In this document: positions 8,064 to 23,145 of the stretch, one piece after another
Numbering within the stretch: the first letter of the stretch is position 1
Layout: the number at the start of each line of letters is the position of its first letter
NCBI GenBank assembly: GCA_036479435.1
Contig: JAZGFI010000130.1
Location: forward strand, 1 to 49,843
From: Planctomycetota bacterium
GTDB lineage: Bacteria > Planctomycetota > GCA-002687715 > DRQF01
Length of the DNA stretch: 49,843 bases
Direction: 5' to 3'
Notes under the pieces: generated by a model
Told to the model about the DNA's origin: nothing
Seen by the model: the letters and a program-made list of their open reading frames with translations, nothing else
The model's database searches: none
Program-made: the position numbers and the translations under genes

Positions 8064-8935
8064 ACGAGGAGCTGCAAGTTTGCCTGGCCGACAAACTCGG
8101 CGGTCGCATCCGCAGCGTTCAAAGCATTGGCGGCGGTGATCTCAGCGAAGCCTTTTGCGTCACCTTGGCTGACGGCCAAGTCGTGTTTGCCAAGACCATG
8201 CTGGGCGCAGACCCGACTTTGTTTTCAGCCGAGGCCGCGGGACTCGAATGGCTGCGAACGTCGACCTCCCTGACCATTCCCGAGGTCTTGGCGGTCTCGT
8301 CCCCGAAAGACAGCGAGCCGCCGTTTTTGGTTTTGGAATGGCTGGAAGCGGGAACAAAGTCAAAACACTACGGCGAGCGATTGGGAAGGGGCTTGGCCGA
8401 ACTTCACCGCGCATCACTCCCCGAGTTTGGCCTGAACCGTGACAACTTCCTCGGGCCGCTTCGGCAAGAAAACACGGCGCTAACGACATGGGCTGAATTC
8501 TACTCAGAGCGGCGCTTGCAGCTTTTGTGGAAGCGGGCCCAGAAACTCGGCCTCACGACTTCGGGTTTCGATCGAGGCATGGAAGCCCTCATCGCAAACC
8601 TCGCTGCGGCCATGGGACCACCGGAGCCACCCTCAAGACTTCACGGCGATTTGTGGTCGGGAAACGTCATGACGACCTCAACCGGCCGGCCCGCCTTGAT
8701 CGACCCCGCCGTTTACGGCGGGCACCGCGAGATCGACCTCGCAATGCTGAAGCTCTTTGGATTCGCTCACCCCGAGGCCTTTAGCGCCTACGAAGAGAGC
8801 TTCCCCCTTGCCGAGGGCGCCGACCAAAGAATTCCGCTCTATCAGCTCTACCCGCTGCTCGCGCACCTCAATCTCTTCGGCGGCGGCTACTTGGCGAGTT
8901 GCGAAAACGCTCTGCGCCAAGTTCGTTGGAAGTGA
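8060..8935 (+). CDS. Fructosamine kinase family protein
   Basis: Motifs LHGDLWSGN and LIDPAVYGGHREIDLAML. ATGA overlap with the upstream phosphatase. Confidence 0.93.
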   Translation: MNEELQVCLADKLGGRIRSVQSIGGGDLSEAFCVTLADGQVVFAKTMLGADPTLFSAEAAGLEWLRTSTSLTIPEVLAVSSPKDSEPPFLVLEWLEAGTKSKHYGERLGRGLAELHRASLPEFGLNRDNFLGPLRQENTALTTWAEFYSERRLQLLWKRAQKLGLTTSGFDRGMEALIANLAAAMGPPEPPSRLHGDLWSGNVMTTSTGRPALIDPAVYGGHREIDLAMLKLFGFAHPEAFSAYEESFPLAEGADQRIPLYQLYPLLAHLNLFGGGYLASCENALRQVRWK

Positions 8936-8945
8936 GAAGCCTGAA

Positions 8946-11900
8946 TTAAGCCGTTCCATGGGCTCGTCGGGGCGATCGGCCTCGCAGGGAGCGTCTTCGA
9001 GTTTTTGGTCTTGCTGGCCATAGCTTCACGATGAGGCAAATGAAGATGACCAGCAAGTTGATGAAGATAACGACAGAAAGCAATCCCACAGCCAAGTCCA
9101 ATGTAAGCGAATGAAAAGAAGATACTTGGCCTTGGATCAGAGCGGAGAAAAGCAACAAGGCTGCACTCGGGGCGAGCATCGTGAGCGTGATGCCGAGGGG
9201 AATCACGGATTTTTGCTTGTCGAGGAAGGCCATGAGCGTGTAGAAGAACGCGCTGAGCAAAGTCATCGCTATGATCGTAGTTTGGATATTGGACGACAAC
9301 AAGACGTCAGTGCGGAGAGCCCCGAAGGCCAACTCGGAGATCACCAAGACGACGGCCATGATGCCTAAAAACCGTGCCGGGAAGGGACCAAAGAGACGCC
9401 GGCTTTCGTCTGGCCCGGTTTGGTAGCGAAAGGCGAAGATCGAAAGGCCGGCGAACGCGGTGAGTTGGGCGAAACCCATGGCGTGCCAAGCGTAGGGAAT
9501 AGCAAAGGCGCGAAGCTCAGTGTTCGCCGCCAAGACTGTCGCTGCCGCAAAACCCGCCGGCGCGAGATACCGCCAGGGATTACGGCAGCGTCTCGCCGCG
9601 TAGGCGGAAGCCGCGGCGGCAAGTGCCCATCCAAGCGTATCGGGCAGGTAGTCGACTCCCTCAAGGTACTGGTGAAAACACGCCATGCCGACACCGGCGA
9701 GCATAAGGAACGCGGAAGCGAGGAGGCGGTAGCGCGGCAGCACCATCAGGAAAAGCGAAAACAAGAACATGGCGTAGAGCACAAAGAACAAGAAGCCGAA
9801 GTCTAATAGAGTTGCCAACTGAGACCAAAGGAGCCTCGGGCGGTGTTCTTGATCGAGGTGAAACCGGTCGATCAATCCGCCAGGGATTTCGGCCCCAGCG
9901 CGGTAAGCTGCGGCAAGTGCAGGACGAATCGGATTTCGGAAGTGAACGTGTTGGAGTTTCTGCCAAGCGAGTTCGCGTGCGGCATCTGAAGGTGAATTCG
10001 AGGCGATGTTGAGCCAAAACTGTTCGGGATTCTTGAAAGGGGCATCGTGCCCGTAGATACGAACCTGCTCAGCGCTTAGTTTCGAAATCAGTTCCCGATC
10101 GCCGGACATCAGCTCCGCAGTCCGAAGATACTCGAACCGGACCCGTTCGATTGGATGAGGTGGAGAGATGACTACCCAGCCCGCGGGATTCTCACGAGCC
10201 TTAAGGAAGAATCCATTCGGACTCTCAAAGTCTTTTGCCCATGAGTTGAGGGCGCTCAGAGCTTTTGGAACCCCGAGAAAGCAAGCGGCTCGTGAAAGAT
10301 CCGAGATGACTTCGCATTGGGCGGAACCGACGGATCGACGAGGGTTGATCGTTGTCCCCTTGGATTCTTCATGCTCTGCGATGATGCAGGCACTCAGCCT
10401 AGATATCCAGCCCTTTAAGGACCAGCTTGTCTTGGCAATCGCATCGCTACTACTGAAAACCAAGACGACTCGGCGTTCCAGCCCGCCGCGAATTCGGGTG
10501 TTGCTTCCCAAGTCTCCAAGAACGGTCATCGTGCCGATTTTGATACCGCGACGCTGACTTGCGGTGAAAGACATGTTGCGGTCTTGCTGCCGATCAAGCT
10601 TTTGAACCCTAAGCGTGAGTTTACCTTGCCGAGTCATGAGGCGAGCCCAAAGCTGGAGCTTGGAGTGGCCCGGTGTTCGCCGAATCGGCGAGAAGCCAAC
10701 AACCGGCATCGAAAAGGCGGTATCGACCCTGTTGGCGGTACTTGTTTGCAGCGAGCTTCGAGCGAAACCTCCGCTGCTGTCCGTCGCGTGATCGTGATCG
10801 GAGCGAAACTCGGCTGATGATGGCGGTACCCAGCCGAGGGAGTCGTTGATTGCCGGCGCCGTCGTGAAAGACTGGCTGACGCCATTGCCGTGGGCATCGA
10901 ACTTGAGGGCTAGGCGGGCGTAGTGCTCACTCGATGGTTGCGACGCGATTTTCCCCCCAGCTAATTCGAAAACGCCGAACTTGACGTAAACGAAAGTGTC
11001 GGACCTTCGACCCTCAAGGTCGAGAAGCTGCCGCCATCGAGACAATATCTTGTGCCCGTAGGCGCGAGCCGCGCCCGCGGGGCGATTCCAGATGATGAGG
11101 TTACTGGCGGCGCTCTCTTGGCTGGAATCGACGCCGTCGCCAGCGGCGAGGATTTCCTCGATGTTGGCGTCCGGGGATACTCTGAGCTGGTCCGACCACC
11201 GGATAATCGGGTCGGCGTCTCGATGCCGACTCCACCAAACGTAGGGATCTTCGATCTTTGGCCCACAGGCGGAAAGCGTTCGAAACCAAGGGTCAAGAAG
11301 TCGCGTGGGGTTCAAGCCCAAGATGCCTACGCGGTCTAACCTTAGCCGCCGACGGCCTGCATGGTCGAGAGCCTTGAGTTGTTCCCAGGCATCAACGATC
11401 GACTGGACGCGGGGCTCAGTCCAGTCGCTGGCCTGACGATGTGCGAAGCGATCTGGGAGATTTGCCGCAATAGCCAGGTGCATGCAGACGCTCGGAATCC
11501 AAGAGAGAGGGATCTCGCGCCGTCGAACTAGGCCTGCGAGTTCTTCACAGAGCGCGTCATCGAGGTGGCTTTCGAAGGCATCGCTACGAAGGTGTAAGTT
11601 TCTGAAGTGTCCGGCAACTGAGAAGAAACCGCGGTGCTGAGGTTCGAATTTCGAGAGCAGGTCAAAACGCGAGAACCCCGTCCCGCTCAGGACTTGGCGC
11701 GCCCACCTACGGACTAGCAGGTTATGGTCGTCGAAGAGCTGGATGATTTGGCGCTCGACGTGGCCCTCACGAGCGAGCCAGTTCGAACGTGGGCTAAAAA
11801 ATCCGAAGATGTTGTGGCCACGAGGGTGAGTTCGATTGAGCCGCTCGATGGATTGTTCGTTCGAGATCTGCTGTCCAGAGGCGATCTCGGAAGCGATGAG

Positions 11901-13382
11901 TTCGACGACCAATCGCGCACCCAAGACCCAAGGCCTTTGTCTGGCGTTGGTTTGGCCCAGATTTTTCGAATTCGCCCTTAGCTGGTTGGCTTCGCGAAGC
12001 GTCTCCTGGAGAAGCTCGGCGGCTTCCTTGGCTTTGTTGGCATTCCGCAAGCCCTTGGCTTTGGCCATCCGGCCTTCAATAATGCGGTCGAATAGGAAGT
12101 CGTCACTGGGATCGTCTGCGAAGGCAAGTTCATAGGCGTCGAGCGCGCCCTCAGCATTTCCTGATTCCCATAGTTTGTCGCCGAGGGTGCGAGCCGTATC
12201 AGGATCGTTGCCCAGGCGCGGCAAGATCGTCACCGCGAACAACACGACCATGACCAAGGCCGAGGCGAAGGCTGCGAGCAAAGGGACGGTCTGCTTTCTT
12301 AGCTTGCGCCAAATTTTCGTGCCGAGGTCAACACGCCGGGCTTGAATGGGGAAGCCCTTCTCGAACCGGGTGAGGTCTTATAGGAAGGCATGCGCGGTCG
12401 CGTAGCGTTCGGCGGGGTCTTTTTGTAAGGCGCAAAGGCAGATGGCCTCAAGATCTGGGGGGCAACTGCGGGTGATGCTACGCGGATGCGGTGCCGCGTC
12501 GTGGATGACTTGGTGAAGAACCTGAACCGCGCTGTCACCACGAAAAGGCCTGCGGCCACAAAGCAACTCGAAAAGAACCACACCCATGGCCCAGACGTCG
12601 GTGGCCTCTCCGATCAAGTCGCTGTCGCCGCGTGCTTGTTCGGGGCTCATGTAGGCCGGCGTTCCGAGGATCTGGCCGGTTAGCGTAAGGCCTGGGTCTT
12701 GCTCGTCGATCTTTCGTACTAGCCCAAAGTCGGTGACAAAAGCGTGATCGTCATCGCCGATGAGGATGTTGTGCGGTTTTAGGTCTCGGTGGACGAGCCC
12801 TCGCTCGTGGATGTAGCTAATCGCTGAAGCAACCTGCCGCATGATGTTGACCGCGCGTGACGGCGTCATGGATCGACCTTTTTTGAGCAGGGCGTGGAGT
12901 GAGCCGCCCTCGATGAGATCCATGGTGAAATAGACTTGGCTCTCGATTTCGCCAACTTCGTGAATCGTCACGATGTGAGGATGTTGAAGTCGAGCGAGAG
13001 CCAGAGTCTCTTGGCGGAAACGAGCGAGAGAACTGGCGGACGAAAACTCACCCGATCGAAGGAGCTTGATGGCGACCTCGCGGTCTAGTGACTTTTGCCG
13101 AGCTCGAAAGACGACGCCCATCCCGCCGCGACCCAGCTCTTCGATTGGCTCGTAGTCGTCGGGGAAAGGGAAAGGCCTTAACTCGCGTTCTTCAAGTGCA
13201 GGTCCGATTTCAGGGGAGGGGTCCGCGAGTTCCTGCAGGCTTCGCAAGCCCTCAAGGCAACTCCTCACTTCTTCATGGTCGATGCCAAACTCTTGGGCGA
13301 TGGCTTCGACCTCAATGCTCTGATTCGCGTCGAGCTTAGAGAGGAGCACCTCGACCATTTCAGAAAAGCGGTCGCGGCTCAT
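8946..13382 (-). pseudogene. Membrane Ser/Thr kinase (~1478 codons) interrupted by one in-frame TAA at 12378-12380: kinase domain, TM, TPR-like and large extracytoplasmic region, C-terminal multi-TM domain
   Basis: ORFs 12378..13382 and 8946..12281 share a frame. The read-through gives ...KDPAERYATAHAFL*DLTRFEKGFPIQARRVDLGTKIWRKLRKQTVPLLAAF..., the usual post-kinase linker. Catalytic motifs are intact: GRGGMG, VAIK, HRDLKPHN, DFG, GTPAYMSPE. Confidence 0.85.
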
Positions 13383-19391: not shown

Positions 19392-20281
19392 CAAGGGTTC
19401 AACTCCCGCGTGCAAAAAGTCAGCTTGCTCACGCCCAAAAACAGCGCGAAGCCAAAGAGGGGGTAGAGCAGTTCGGGGTGTGTAAAGCCGAGCGCTTCAA
19501 TGTCTTGCACTTGAGTCTCGATTCCCCGGGCGGTTTCTGCGCAGCGCTCGTAGCCGATCTCAATCGCTCGAAGGCCCATGAGCGTTTCTGAATCGGGAAA
19601 GGCCTCGGCTAAGAACCCGAAAAACATGCGACTCAAGATGGCGAGCGTTACTGCCGTGGCCTCTGAATCGATGAGGGTCGAAACCAATAGACCCAAGGCA
19701 GCAAAGAAAAACAGCGGCAGGGTGGCGACCAACTGCAACTTCAGGGCCATGGCTCGCATCGACTCCAGGTCAAACTTCAAGACCGGGTCAAGCCCTTCGA
19801 TCTCAACCAAGACCGGCCCAAACCCGAACCTAAACTTCGTAACTAGCCAAGCGATGGTCAGCACCGTGCCAATGAGAATGAGTGCGAAGAGAAACAGGGT
19901 CGCGGCCTTGGCGGCAACGATCTCGGACCGAGCGACGGGGCGCAGTAGATAGGCTCGCAAGGCACTGGATTGGCGTTCGCAGTTGACACAAGACGCGCCG
20001 AGGATGACCAGCAGCAAGGAGCTGATCTCAAAGCCTCGGCGGACCATCTCGGCGAGTTCGGTCCAGGATTCCCCGGCATCAAGGGGCAAATCGGAGAACG
20101 CCGGCACCGAAAAGACGGCGAGGGCGGCGGCGAGAATGCCTAACCAGGGCAGAGCACGCCGACGCGTCTTGGCGATTTCAAAGCGCAAACAGCGGATAAA
20201 TCTCCGCGTGCGACCGGCGGGCGAGCTGGTGGTCAAGCGGCGTTTGTTTTCGACGATCTCCTCAGTTTGGACTTCGGTCAC
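19391..20281 (-). CDS. ABC-2-type transporter permease
   Basis: About 6 TM segments and the signature E...ALRAYLLRPVARSEIVAAK. Coupled to the ATPase gene. Confidence 0.8.
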   Translation of the reverse strand: MTEVQTEEIVENKRRLTTSSPAGRTRRFIRCLRFEIAKTRRRALPWLGILAAALAVFSVPAFSDLPLDAGESWTELAEMVRRGFEISSLLLVILGASCVNCERQSSALRAYLLRPVARSEIVAAKAATLFLFALILIGTVLTIAWLVTKFRFGFGPVLVEIEGLDPVLKFDLESMRAMALKLQLVATLPLFFFAALGLLVSTLIDSEATAVTLAILSRMFFGFLAEAFPDSETLMGLRAIEIGYERCAETARGIETQVQDIEALGFTHPELLYPLFGFALFLGVSKLTFCTRELNP

Positions 20282-21216
20282 GTCAGGCTGCCTTCACGGC
20301 GAAGGGACGATTGACTGAGGAAGAACTCTTCGAGGGTCACGCGTACTTCAGCTAGAGTTCGGATCTCAACGCCCGCTTTCACCAAGTCTCGGTGCAAGCG
20401 ACCCAACTGATCCGGCGAGATTTCGAACTTGATCTGCTGGGAAGGGATGCGTTTCACATTGAGACAGTCATCGTCTTGACCCAACAACTCCAGCGCGCGA
20501 TCGGCATCGACTTTCGATGCGCAGTTGAGCGAGAACCGGCCTTTCAGTCGGCTTTGGAGCGCATCCATGCGGTCGGCAAAAACGAGCTGGCCGGATTCGA
20601 TCATGATAACGTGGTCGCAGATCAACTCGATCTCGTGTATGAGGTGACTTGAGATGAAGAAAGTGACGCCGGACTCACGGTTGAGTTTTTGGATGAGCCG
20701 GCGCATCTCCATGATGCCGTTGGGGTCCAAGCCGTTCGTTGGCTCGTCCAAGATAATGAGCTCGGGTTGGCCGACCAAAGCCAGGGCGATGGCCAAGCGT
20801 TGCTTCATGCCCAAAGAGTAGTGGCGAGCCGGTCGATCTGCGGCGTCGCTTAAGCCGACTTGCTCTAAGACCTCATCCACTTCGCCTTGGTAGCCGCCGA
20901 GCCCCGACAAAAATCTGATGTTTTGGCGACCGGTTAGTCGCGGATAAAAAGCCGCAGAATCGACGAGGGCCCCAATGCGCCCTAAGGCGGCGGCGCGTCC
21001 GCGGCGGTCGTTAGCGCCGAAAAGTTCGAAGCTACCTTGGTCGGGAGCGAGCAGTCCCAAAATGATGCGCAAGGTCGTGCTCTTGCCCGAGCCGTTGAGA
21101 CCGAGGAATCCGGTGATGCTTCCGCGTTCAACTCGGAGAGAAAGATCATGCACGGCGCGCACCGGTCCGAATGACTTTCCGAGTCCTTTAGTCTCGATGA
21201 GGGCTGGCTTGGACAT
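20278..21216 (-). CDS. ABC transporter ATP-binding protein
   Basis: Walker A GLNGSGKST, signature YSLGMKQR, Walker B ILDEPTNGLD and H-loop SSH. Start could be 21216 or 21234. Confidence 0.95.
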   Translation of the reverse strand: MSKPALIETKGLGKSFGPVRAVHDLSLRVERGSITGFLGLNGSGKSTTLRIILGLLAPDQGSFELFGANDRRGRAAALGRIGALVDSAAFYPRLTGRQNIRFLSGLGGYQGEVDEVLEQVGLSDAADRPARHYSLGMKQRLAIALALVGQPELIILDEPTNGLDPNGIMEMRRLIQKLNRESGVTFFISSHLIHEIELICDHVIMIESGQLVFADRMDALQSRLKGRFSLNCASKVDADRALELLGQDDDCLNVKRIPSQQIKFEISPDQLGRLHRDLVKAGVEIRTLAEVRVTLEEFFLSQSSLRREGSLT

Positions 21217-21254
21217 GTGGTCTCGACTCTTCAATCCCGTTTAATACGCGAACG

Positions 21255-21471
21255 CGGCTTGATCTTGGAACTTGGCTTTCAGTCTTAACGGAGCCTACCC
21301 GTAAGGTCGGTCGCTTCGCAAGACGACGGGGGGCGGAGCGGGTACGGGTCTGCATAGTTACCCCTTGGCCCCTTACGTTAAGTCCAGGCTTAGATGCGCT
21401 CGATACAGATCTTGTCGAGAGGGGTATGAAAGCCGCAAGGCTCCCCTCCCCAGACACCAGATTCCAAGCCG
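21255..21471 (+). ncRNA. Candidate structured non-coding RNA, family not recognised
   Basis: Six compatible helices, a closing stem joining both ends, and two GCAA tetraloops, within a 510-bp gap between divergent operons (see findings). Confidence 0.6.
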
Positions 21472-21744
21472 GTCAGATCCGTGAGGTCAGTGCCGGCAAG
21501 GACGCTTCAAAAGCGATGAGCATTTGAGGGGGCCCATGGTCCCCCAAGGAGTTTGAAAAAGCCAGGGTTGCCGCTGTGCGTAATTCTTTCTGACCATCTC
21601 ACATTTCCCTCTTCTATTCCCTTTTCCTTCTTCTGAAGAGAGTTCCCGAGGCTTTTTCATTTTACTTCGCTTCAAATACGGGACGCGCGCCGAGGACTTC
21701 GGCGCGCGTCTTGCGTTGGGGCCCACAAGCGCCACAATTGGAGG

Positions 21745-23145
21745 ATGCAGACCGGCCGCCACATTCTGAAGCGACTCGAAGTCCGGAGCCGAGGTCCGGC
21801 CTTGACCGGGTTCTTACGGTGTTACCTGAAGCTTTTGGGACTCGGGCTGTTTTTGTTGCCGCTCGCCGCCTTGTTGTACCGGCTTGAGTTTGGCCGGCCC
21901 CAGCTTCCCTTTACCGGCGTTTTCTTGGGGCTGATCCTCTTGGCGATCTTGCTGCTTTTCTTGGCGGCGTTTGAATTTCTGCGAGGCCACGGCCAGGCCT
22001 TGACGGCGGCTCGCGAAGCTGACCTTGAACTGGGCGGCGGGGAACGCTTGTTGTCGGCGGTCGAGACCGCAACGCTCGATCGCAAGGGTCGTTTAGACCC
22101 TCTGTTGTTTCGCGACGCCGAACAGGCCCTCAACCGTTTGCCGACAAAGCGCCGACCTTCTCGCGGCTTTCCCTGGCCGCCCCTGCGGCGTATTGCCGTC
22201 GTCGTGGGTTTGGTCTTGCTGATCCTGTTTGTGCCCGCGGCCAATAGCGGCCGTTGGGGCTCCACATCAAATAAGAGCGCTTCGGTGTACGAAGGGCCCA
22301 AAGACGATGTCGTGAAGGGTGACGAAGCCGCGGCGGGTGAAGAGGCAAGCGCCGGAGATTTCGCGGGCAAGGTGACGGTACGGGCGGAAACAGATGCGCG
22401 GCTTTACCTTTTGGGTCAAGAGATCAACCTCAGTCTTGAGCTGAAGACTCTCGAACCCCTGCCCGAAGGGCGCCGGCTCAAAGCAGTCCTAGTTATCGAC
22501 GGTTCGAAGCGACTAGAGTTGCCTTTGGATTGGACGCTTCCCACCGAAACGGGGCAACGATTGGAGGCGCGCTGGGCCTTGAAGGCGCGCTTGGAGGAAA
22601 TCGAGCGCTACGAAAGTGGGCTGATGTCCATCGAGGCCTACGTTTTTGCCGCCGTTCAACGCGAAGATCTCAAGGGCCCGGCGGCCGCTAACGGGCTGCT
22701 GATCCAAATCTCTGAGAACCAGGAGCGCCTTCGCAGCAAGATGCCGCGTTCGGCTAAGAAGGAAAAGAAGCCGGATACAAAACCCCGCCGAAAGCGCCCC
22801 AAGAAAGAGCGCCCGAATCGCCCGCCTCAAAAAAAGAAGAAGCCGCGTGCCGCCGCGGCCCCCGGCCCTGGCGAAAAGCCCCCCGAGAAGATCGAGTCGA
22901 TTGAACACGTCATCGAGCCCTTGTTCGCAGGCGATCAAAAAACGAAACGCAAGACTCGCATTTTCAAACGGGACCTCGAAGATGCTCCGCCCTTGCCGCC
23001 GGAGGAAAAGAAAAAGGCCCGTGACCGCGCTTACAGCAAGGGCGTTGAGGCGGAGTTTAGGCGCATCAAGCTAGGCGATCGCGAGCGCGGGCTAGTGCGC
23101 CGCTACCTGGACGGCTTGCGTCCGGGTGGGACCTCGGGCCCATGA
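21745..23145 (+). CDS. Membrane protein of a DUF58/vWA cluster (3 TM, Lys/Pro-rich tail)
   Basis: TM-TM-(AREADLELGGGERLLSAVE)-TM architecture and C-terminal RGLVRRYLD, as seen in MoxR/vWA-associated membrane proteins. Confidence 0.6.
   Translation: MQTGRHILKRLEVRSRGPALTGFLRCYLKLLGLGLFLLPLAALLYRLEFGRPQLPFTGVFLGLILLAILLLFLAAFEFLRGHGQALTAAREADLELGGGERLLSAVETATLDRKGRLDPLLFRDAEQALNRLPTKRRPSRGFPWPPLRRIAVVVGLVLLILFVPAANSGRWGSTSNKSASVYEGPKDDVVKGDEAAAGEEASAGDFAGKVTVRAETDARLYLLGQEINLSLELKTLEPLPEGRRLKAVLVIDGSKRLELPLDWTLPTETGQRLEARWALKARLEEIERYESGLMSIEAYVFAAVQREDLKGPAAANGLLIQISENQERLRSKMPRSAKKEKKPDTKPRRKRPKKERPNRPPQKKKKPRAAAAPGPGEKPPEKIESIEHVIEPLFAGDQKTKRKTRIFKRDLEDAPPLPPEEKKKARDRAYSKGVEAEFRRIKLGDRERGLVRRYLDGLRPGGTSGP

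Follow-up and report, generated by a model that had tools for sequence, protein, structure and literature searches.

In the 49,843-nt stretch of planctomycetotal DNA analysed here (the window), two operons diverge from a gap of 528 nt, which is bounded by the start of a minus-strand ABC-transporter ATPase gene at 21216 and by a plus-strand gene for a 466-aa protein. The ATPase gene is followed by genes for an ABC-2 permease and an FG-GAP protein, and the 466-aa protein, with orthologues in 18 of the 23 genomes that represent the class in our collection, heads an operon of DUF58 and BatA-vWA genes. Gene order around the region is retained in the family and in much of the class; the source genome, 92% complete, is the sole member of its genus searched. 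The features discussed below are the following:

20278-21216, minus strand: gene for an ABC-transporter ATPase, first of the divergent operon (Pfam ABC_tran, E 1.7e-30; start from our own gene calling)
21255-21471, plus strand: the 217-nt candidate, unsupported as a single folded RNA
21292-21321, minus strand: predicted sigma70-type promoter of the ABC operon (-35 TTGCGA at 21321-16, 18-nt spacer, -10 TAGGCT at 21297-92)
21378-21406, plus strand: predicted sigma28 (FliA/WhiG)-type promoter (TTAAG, 18 nt, CGATA)
21413-21665, plus strand: predicted small RNA of ~250 nt, its start set by the sigma28-type promoter, +/-2 nt
21419-21448, plus strand: first hairpin of the predicted RNA, AGGGG/CCCCT (pair probability 0.97-1.0 in the predicted transcript)
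21555-21658, plus strand: conserved 3' domain, defined by models R1 and R2, covariation and alignment
21592-21633, plus strand: C/U-rich apical loop, a candidate seed region (~30 nt near-invariant class-wide; mean unpaired probability 0.73)
21682-21710, plus strand: strong GC hairpin after the domain, terminator-like with a weak U tail (pair probability ~1.0; -30 kcal/mol)
21711-21738, plus strand: predicted sigma70-type promoter of the 466-aa gene, 6 nt before its ATG and so of leaderless type (8/14 loci, 1/284 controls)
21745-23145, plus strand: gene for the 466-aa protein, first of the DUF58/BatA-vWA operon (no Pfam family)

The original prediction took positions 21255 to 21471 as one plus-strand structured RNA, closed by a terminal stem and containing nested helices, GNRA loops and two possible pseudoknots. 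All of its stems exist where it drew them, as does the alternative pairing of 21328-39 with 21440-51 that it set against part of the fold, but with one mismatch. The stretch is indeed rich in self-complementarity: it holds eight Watson-Crick helices of at least 7 bp against 1.2 in shuffled sequences (none of 300 shuffles reaches eight), and three GNRA loops closed by two pairs, a number equalled in 21 of 2000 shuffles. The eight-helix count is reached by 69 of 50,728 genome windows (0.14%), many of those being repeats, and by 20 of 33,119 at matched GC; the most self-complementary windows include a CRISPR-like array on another contig of the source genome (C227, ~11300-12200). Much of the excess can be put down to selection, as the stretch was chosen from about 500 windows, but the surplus of perfect helices is only partly accounted for in this way and is not fully explained.

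These perfect helices are mostly mutually exclusive. The fold as drawn has an energy of -42.6 kcal/mol (-57.2 after constrained refinement) against an optimum of -83.7, placing it 26-41 kcal/mol above the best structure, and the closing stem, both pseudoknot helices and the three inner stems on the 5' side all have pair probabilities of at most 0.01, as computed by a folding program that cannot model pseudoknots. The folding z-score put forward as a check came to -1.79 on the plus strand and -1.03 on the minus strand. What holds in the fold of the 217 nt is its 3' end, where the hairpin at 21420-21447 has pair probabilities of 0.75-1.0 and that at 21399-21419 is partly formed (0.3-0.4).

Relatives of the stretch were equally elusive. 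A scan of the window with Rfam 15 gave no match at the gathering threshold and, below it, none over 21255-21600, so that no catalogued family, 6S RNA and the raiA motif included, was recovered at this locus. BLAST found a homologue of the 217 nt in none of 60 relatives and a covariance model of the drawn fold (R3) reached a best E of 0.27 in the 22 other class genomes and of 0.08 when run unfiltered on 21 syntenic loci, both searches covering relatives outside the source genus; the syntenic loci of relatives held no homologue, and no further copy was found in the genome itself, in plasmids or in phages. A three-part sequence pattern had two matches in metagenome contigs, which do not align outside it and appear to be chance occurrences in coding sequence. 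Covariation at the strain level could not be seen because the contigs of four sequencing runs carried no variant letters. The drawn fold is very probably not a unit, and both it and its boundaries appear to be wrong.

The 5' two thirds of the stretch instead hold two conserved promoters. The minus-strand promoter at 21292-21321 overlaps the first GCAA loop of the drawn fold, which is part of its -35 box, and the TACCCG arm; the arrangement recurs at 7/9 loci of the family and at 7/18 loci showing the ABC gene, with 0/143 control windows matching, and we infer from this sequence pattern that it works as the promoter of the ABC operon. The plus-strand sigma28-type promoter at 21378-21406 overlaps the CGTTAAG and CTCGATA arms. 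Its motif lies upstream of the conserved domain in all 22 orthologous loci (0/228 control windows), at a distance of 86-218 nt, with a spacer of 17 nt in 16 of them, 18 in five and 16 in one; the window has 18. The same motif precedes 23/60 flagellin genes of the class and 100/4199 genes of the source genome, the flagellin count being the sole independent check on promoter patterns that were tuned on the RNA loci; genome-wide, the spacing of the two boxes shows a mild peak only. The promoter type is thus shared with flagellin genes, in a genome that encodes two FliA/WhiG genes above cut-off. The boxes agree with the E. coli FliA sites given in Table 2 of PMC4183435, the spacer being 1-2 nt longer here.

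The presence of these motifs and their conservation are established, and a start near 21413 would follow from them. Such a start splits the drawn fold in two and leaves only the hairpin at 21419-21448, the 3'-most of the original prediction (AGGGG/CCCCT with a GCAA cap), which was correctly drawn and is thermodynamically solid, its sequence not being conserved. The 217-nt stretch is therefore probably a divergent promoter region together with the 5'-terminal 60 nt of a separate small RNA. At three loci of family f3 (L052, L056 and L057) the sigma28 -35 box coincides with, or lies close to, a TTGACA-like box on the minus strand that is directed at the ABC gene, and the two form a tight divergent promoter pair.

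The structure that relatives do share lies 85-190 nt past the 3' end of the 217 nt. It consists of a 13-bp basal stem, a three-way junction with the near-invariant letters GGUUG and GUAA, a short side hairpin and an 8-bp stem that bears a C/U-rich loop of about 40 nt. Two-sided changes are seen in 19/25 pairs among the 22 orthologues and in 23/25 among 45 sequences (0/500 shuffles), with a covariation score of 0.49-0.51 against at most 0.17 for slid registers; the underlying alignments (A4 and A5) were made to fit the model and contain related, non-independent sequences, and a structure-blind alignment still gives two-sided change in 13/21 pairs. The strand is the plus strand, as a U-G pair is kept in 42/45 sequences and the plus-strand consensus supports 21 pairs, that of the minus strand only 10; the same evidence speaks against a GGA-rich decoy read from the minus strand. 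A small peptide encoded in the loop was discarded by eye: third positions do not vary, one locus (L003) carries an extra nucleotide, and differences in loop length do not keep the frame. This covarying domain is almost certainly a real RNA, and it bears out one general claim of the original prediction, that an uncatalogued plus-strand non-coding RNA is encoded in this intergenic region.

The transcript that would join the sigma28-type promoter to this domain likely exists as an independent RNA, as far as sequence can tell. It would measure ~250 nt, or ~300 nt if extended through the next hairpin (21682-21710, absent from the terminator-scan listing), and in the orthologous loci predicted RNAs measure 167-307 nt up to the end of the domain. 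The segment between promoter and domain varies in length and sequence and folds as local hairpins. Folding z-scores are -4.0 for 21412-21560 and -3.6 for 21412-21716.

A model built on 15 sequences (R1) matches all 23 genomes of the class, the match in one of them (G019) being a paralogue, as its orthologue is broken by a contig end. A broader model of 45 sequences (R2) matches 33 of 151 sampled Planctomycetota genomes and 26 of 144 outside the class, with one to seven copies of the family per genome; a match in G060 was judged probably false, the junction being missing. Rfam recognized the 3' domain in none of nine orthologous and 20 paralogous or distant loci, and the RNA family is uncatalogued. 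A second copy in the source genome (C288:70203-70305, minus strand, locus L169) has a different loop followed by a U-tailed hairpin, and sits upstream of a gene labelled by eye as an LpxA-like acyltransferase. Another orthologue group (L066-L073) has a near-invariant loop of its own; its members lie directly after what looks by eye like a low-molecular-weight phosphatase gene, some with a sigma70-type promoter. In viral contigs the loop pattern had no matches, and the 57 matches to the junction pattern, the best with E 0.012 and 0.038 under R2, were treated as chance; the second of these values belongs to a sequence that partly resembles the junction and basal stem (L108:282-416), itself probably fortuitous. 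The one Bacteroidota sequence matching the loop pattern consists of a simple repeat and lacks the stems.

The loops offer the best clue to what the domain might do. Among 42 distinct loops 85% of the letters are pyrimidines, with 49 G in 1564 letters, and the words AUUCC (41 vs 5.6), UUCC (100 vs 47) and also UCCC are enriched, the classic anti-Shine-Dalgarno words CUCC and UCCU showing no enrichment. In the source genome, which is 92% complete, we found neither Hfq nor CsrA nor Ro60. Across the sampled phylum CsrA occurs in 57/151 genomes and the RNA in 33/151, with an overlap of one (the doubtful G060) against 12.5 expected, so that 1/33 RNA carriers encodes CsrA; this near-exclusion may reflect one deep split in the phylum, so that its nominal p-value is too strong. 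Several flagellins are encoded in 22/23 class genomes, and the sampled members are without CsrA.

Searches for pairing partners gave a mixed picture. Against 4395 predicted start regions of its own genome the loop has 588 sites below -20 kcal/mol, compared with 607-713 for shuffled loops; a flagellin gene (C136:10725) ranks 14th, the predicted duplex extending over its start codon and SD region. Scattered matches without an obvious shared target were obtained for a 17-nt loop complement allowing two mismatches, and no strong antisense match is conserved in the class. Among the 60 of 62 recovered flagellin leaders that were long enough (the loop of G021 standing in for that of G019), eight carry a perfect loop complement of at least 9 nt against 2.8% of 4290 leaders of the source genome, and one of 200 shuffled-loop sets reaches eight. 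Seven of these eight are among the 27 leaders of this family, compared with 1/33 elsewhere, though the loop is class-wide; four of the seven belong to a single genus, and one of the sites overlaps the promoter of its gene. The word GGAA is present in 46/60 flagellin leaders versus 43%, ordinary SD words being likewise common there. One genome (G017) has the RNA and its promoter and no flagellin match, and leaders of the source genome that carry the sigma28 motif show no excess of complements (3/50 vs 94/4149, p 0.11). As a true target flagellin is, on this sequence evidence, possible but doubtful.

Taken together, we lean towards two promoters and the front of a separate small RNA with a pairing loop as the explanation of this region. 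The sigma28 holoenzyme would initiate an RNA of 250-300 nt at ~21413, whose variable 5' half would fold into local hairpins and whose 3' domain would form a rigid three-way-junction stalk presenting the 40-nt C/U-rich loop in an open state. This loop would pair with purine-rich stretches, containing GGAA or GGGA, in mRNA leaders and ribosome-binding regions, and would thereby lower translation without Hfq or CsrA. Paralogues would reuse the stalk with different loops for different targets, and in this family flagellin leaders are candidate targets, which could provide feedback late in flagellar assembly. That the RNA acts by antisense base pairing seems somewhat favoured by the composition and conservation of its loop, which would probably silence mRNAs in this way.

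Could the original prediction nevertheless be right, with a young, lineage-specific 217-nt RNA made from a weak plus-strand promoter and overlapping both conserved ones? Its eight perfect helices and three GNRA loops speak for it, its ends close in a 7-bp stem of probability 0.8-1.0, a TTTAAT hexamer seen by eye at 21240-45 would place a start near 21252, and an RNA of this kind would show no homologue when only one member of the genus is searched. Against this, no sigma70-type site passed the scan, the fold lies far from the optimum with a z-score of -1.8 and no homologue, the positions conserved in relatives are promoter boxes, and several of the helices are mutually exclusive and pair the start of the sigma28 RNA with DNA that lies upstream of it. 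The RNA as drawn is unsupported, and we consider it very unlikely. About as improbable is that the 3' domain acts in cis as the leader of the next gene, be it as attenuator, riboswitch or translation enhancer, although at six loci of families f2 and f3 (L058-60, L062, L064 and L065) a gene starts soon after the domain, with an SD-like stretch and ATG seen by eye within ~15-50 nt, and a U/C-rich tail comes after the basal stem. The downstream genes differ among genomes, in several relatives the 466-aa gene is separated from the RNA by other genes, and in one genome (G007) the RNA stays beside the ABC gene with the 466-aa gene on a different contig. We saw no alternative fold. Hairpins at or below -20 kcal/mol come after 17/45 copies compared with 4/45 controls, a threshold chosen afterwards, whereas the preset -12 kcal/mol does not discriminate (32 copies vs 29 controls). 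The suggestion that the RNA might be a cis-element of the DUF58/vWA operon also loses ground, because that operon has a conserved promoter of its own at 21711-21738; its mRNA appears to begin leaderless (window 21711-21747, loci L004-L010). A cis role may still apply to the domain in some of the six f2 and f3 loci.

The main rival to antisense pairing is a protein decoy, in which the junction or the AUUCC/UUCC words of the 3' domain would titrate an RNA-binding protein such as S1, Rho, a KH protein or an uncharacterised flagellar regulator. Such a role would suit a multi-copy RNA with common short words in otherwise different loops and near-invariant junction residues, and it would also fit the lack of a strong conserved antisense match in the class and of a global excess at translation starts. 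It sits poorly with some 30 loop letters that are nearly unchanged class-wide, a length that exceeds a short protein motif and is typical of seeds, and with words that complement GGAA, unlike CsrA-type GGA sites; we regard the decoy as unlikely. Less likely still is a bolder variant, in which lineages without CsrA would have replaced CsrA-type translational control by a modular RNA family, its fixed three-way-junction scaffold recruiting a dedicated protein and bearing exchangeable C/U-rich guide loops, with one copy wired to sigma28 against flagellin; if true, such a guide-and-scaffold small RNA system would be independent of Hfq, ProQ-type chaperones and CsrA. The best reading remains, by analogy, an Hfq-independent antisense small RNA working like RepG of Helicobacter pylori.

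A class-wide, multi-copy family with an unusually conserved scaffold would give a handle on post-transcriptional control where Hfq and CsrA have not been found, and the near-exclusion of RNA and CsrA offers a testable example in which an RNA may have taken the place of a protein regulator. In the literature searched we found no study of small-RNA regulation in Planctomycetota, nor a description of this family; subscription papers or the supplements of PMC11109978 and preprints could hold the motif, and the term Planctomycetes does not occur in the main text of PMC11109978.

Known RNA classes do not account for the locus. The raiA motif, an RNA of ~200 nt with a closing stem and pseudoknots, most resembles the fold of the original prediction, and no RF03072 match was obtained with E up to 1 in the genome or up to 10 in the region. 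For 6S RNA there is no RF00013 match at the locus, the only candidate being on contig C271 at 35.2 bits against a cut-off of 46.4; that candidate (8802-8988, plus strand) lies tail to tail with an RNase P RNA gene (9052-9435, minus strand). RNase P RNA, tmRNA and SRP RNA have full copies elsewhere in the genome, on C271, C17 and C252, HDV-like ribozymes and group I introns gave no Rfam match, and a bacterial Y RNA was set aside as the 92%-complete genome has no match to Ro60 (TROVE, PF05731). The CsrB and RsmZ decoys likewise come as several RNAs built on repeats of short words and are linked to the flagellum, CsrA controlling flagellin; the words here instead complement GGA-type sites, and a decoy of that kind is ruled out by the scarcity of G in the loops and the missing CsrA. 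For the Rhodopirellula-1 motif, which has a rod-like fold, the three supplement rows and the consensus text of PMC2864571, compared by eye, show no GGUUG/GUAA junction or C/U loop.

Closer parallels are found among flagellar small RNAs. UhpU, MotR, FliX and FlgO of E. coli are sigma28-dependent and several of them pair with flagellin mRNA, but they derive from UTRs and their pairing falls mostly within the coding region of fliC (PMC10578931), whereas here we have a predicted free-standing gene with a conserved domain in a genome where Hfq was not found. CJnc230 of Campylobacter jejuni, likewise flagellar, blocks ribosome-binding sites with a single-stranded anti-SD stretch; as described in PMC11187230, it is linked to RpoN and RpoD, exposes 12 nt between hairpins and targets flgM, for which the Pfam FlgM model has no match in our 23 class genomes. 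A 101-aa ORF with a sigma28 motif near a fliA gene (C235:57528) may be a diverged FlgM.

Helicobacter, to our knowledge, is without Hfq. Its RepG is an intergenic small RNA that exposes a C/U-rich loop on a 3' stem and pairs through it with a purine run in the mRNA leader of the chemotaxis receptor gene tlpB (PMC8295292), and a conserved, exposed C/U-rich loop on a 3' stem is what we find here too. The differences are that the loop in our family is borne on a three-way junction and is ~40 nt long and that the family is multi-copy, while RepG targets a phase-variable G-repeat; the likeness was compared through Rfam only, which gave no match. By analogy, the planctomycetotal RNA would work most like RepG and the flagellar small RNAs of E. 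coli and C. jejuni, yet it belongs to none of them.
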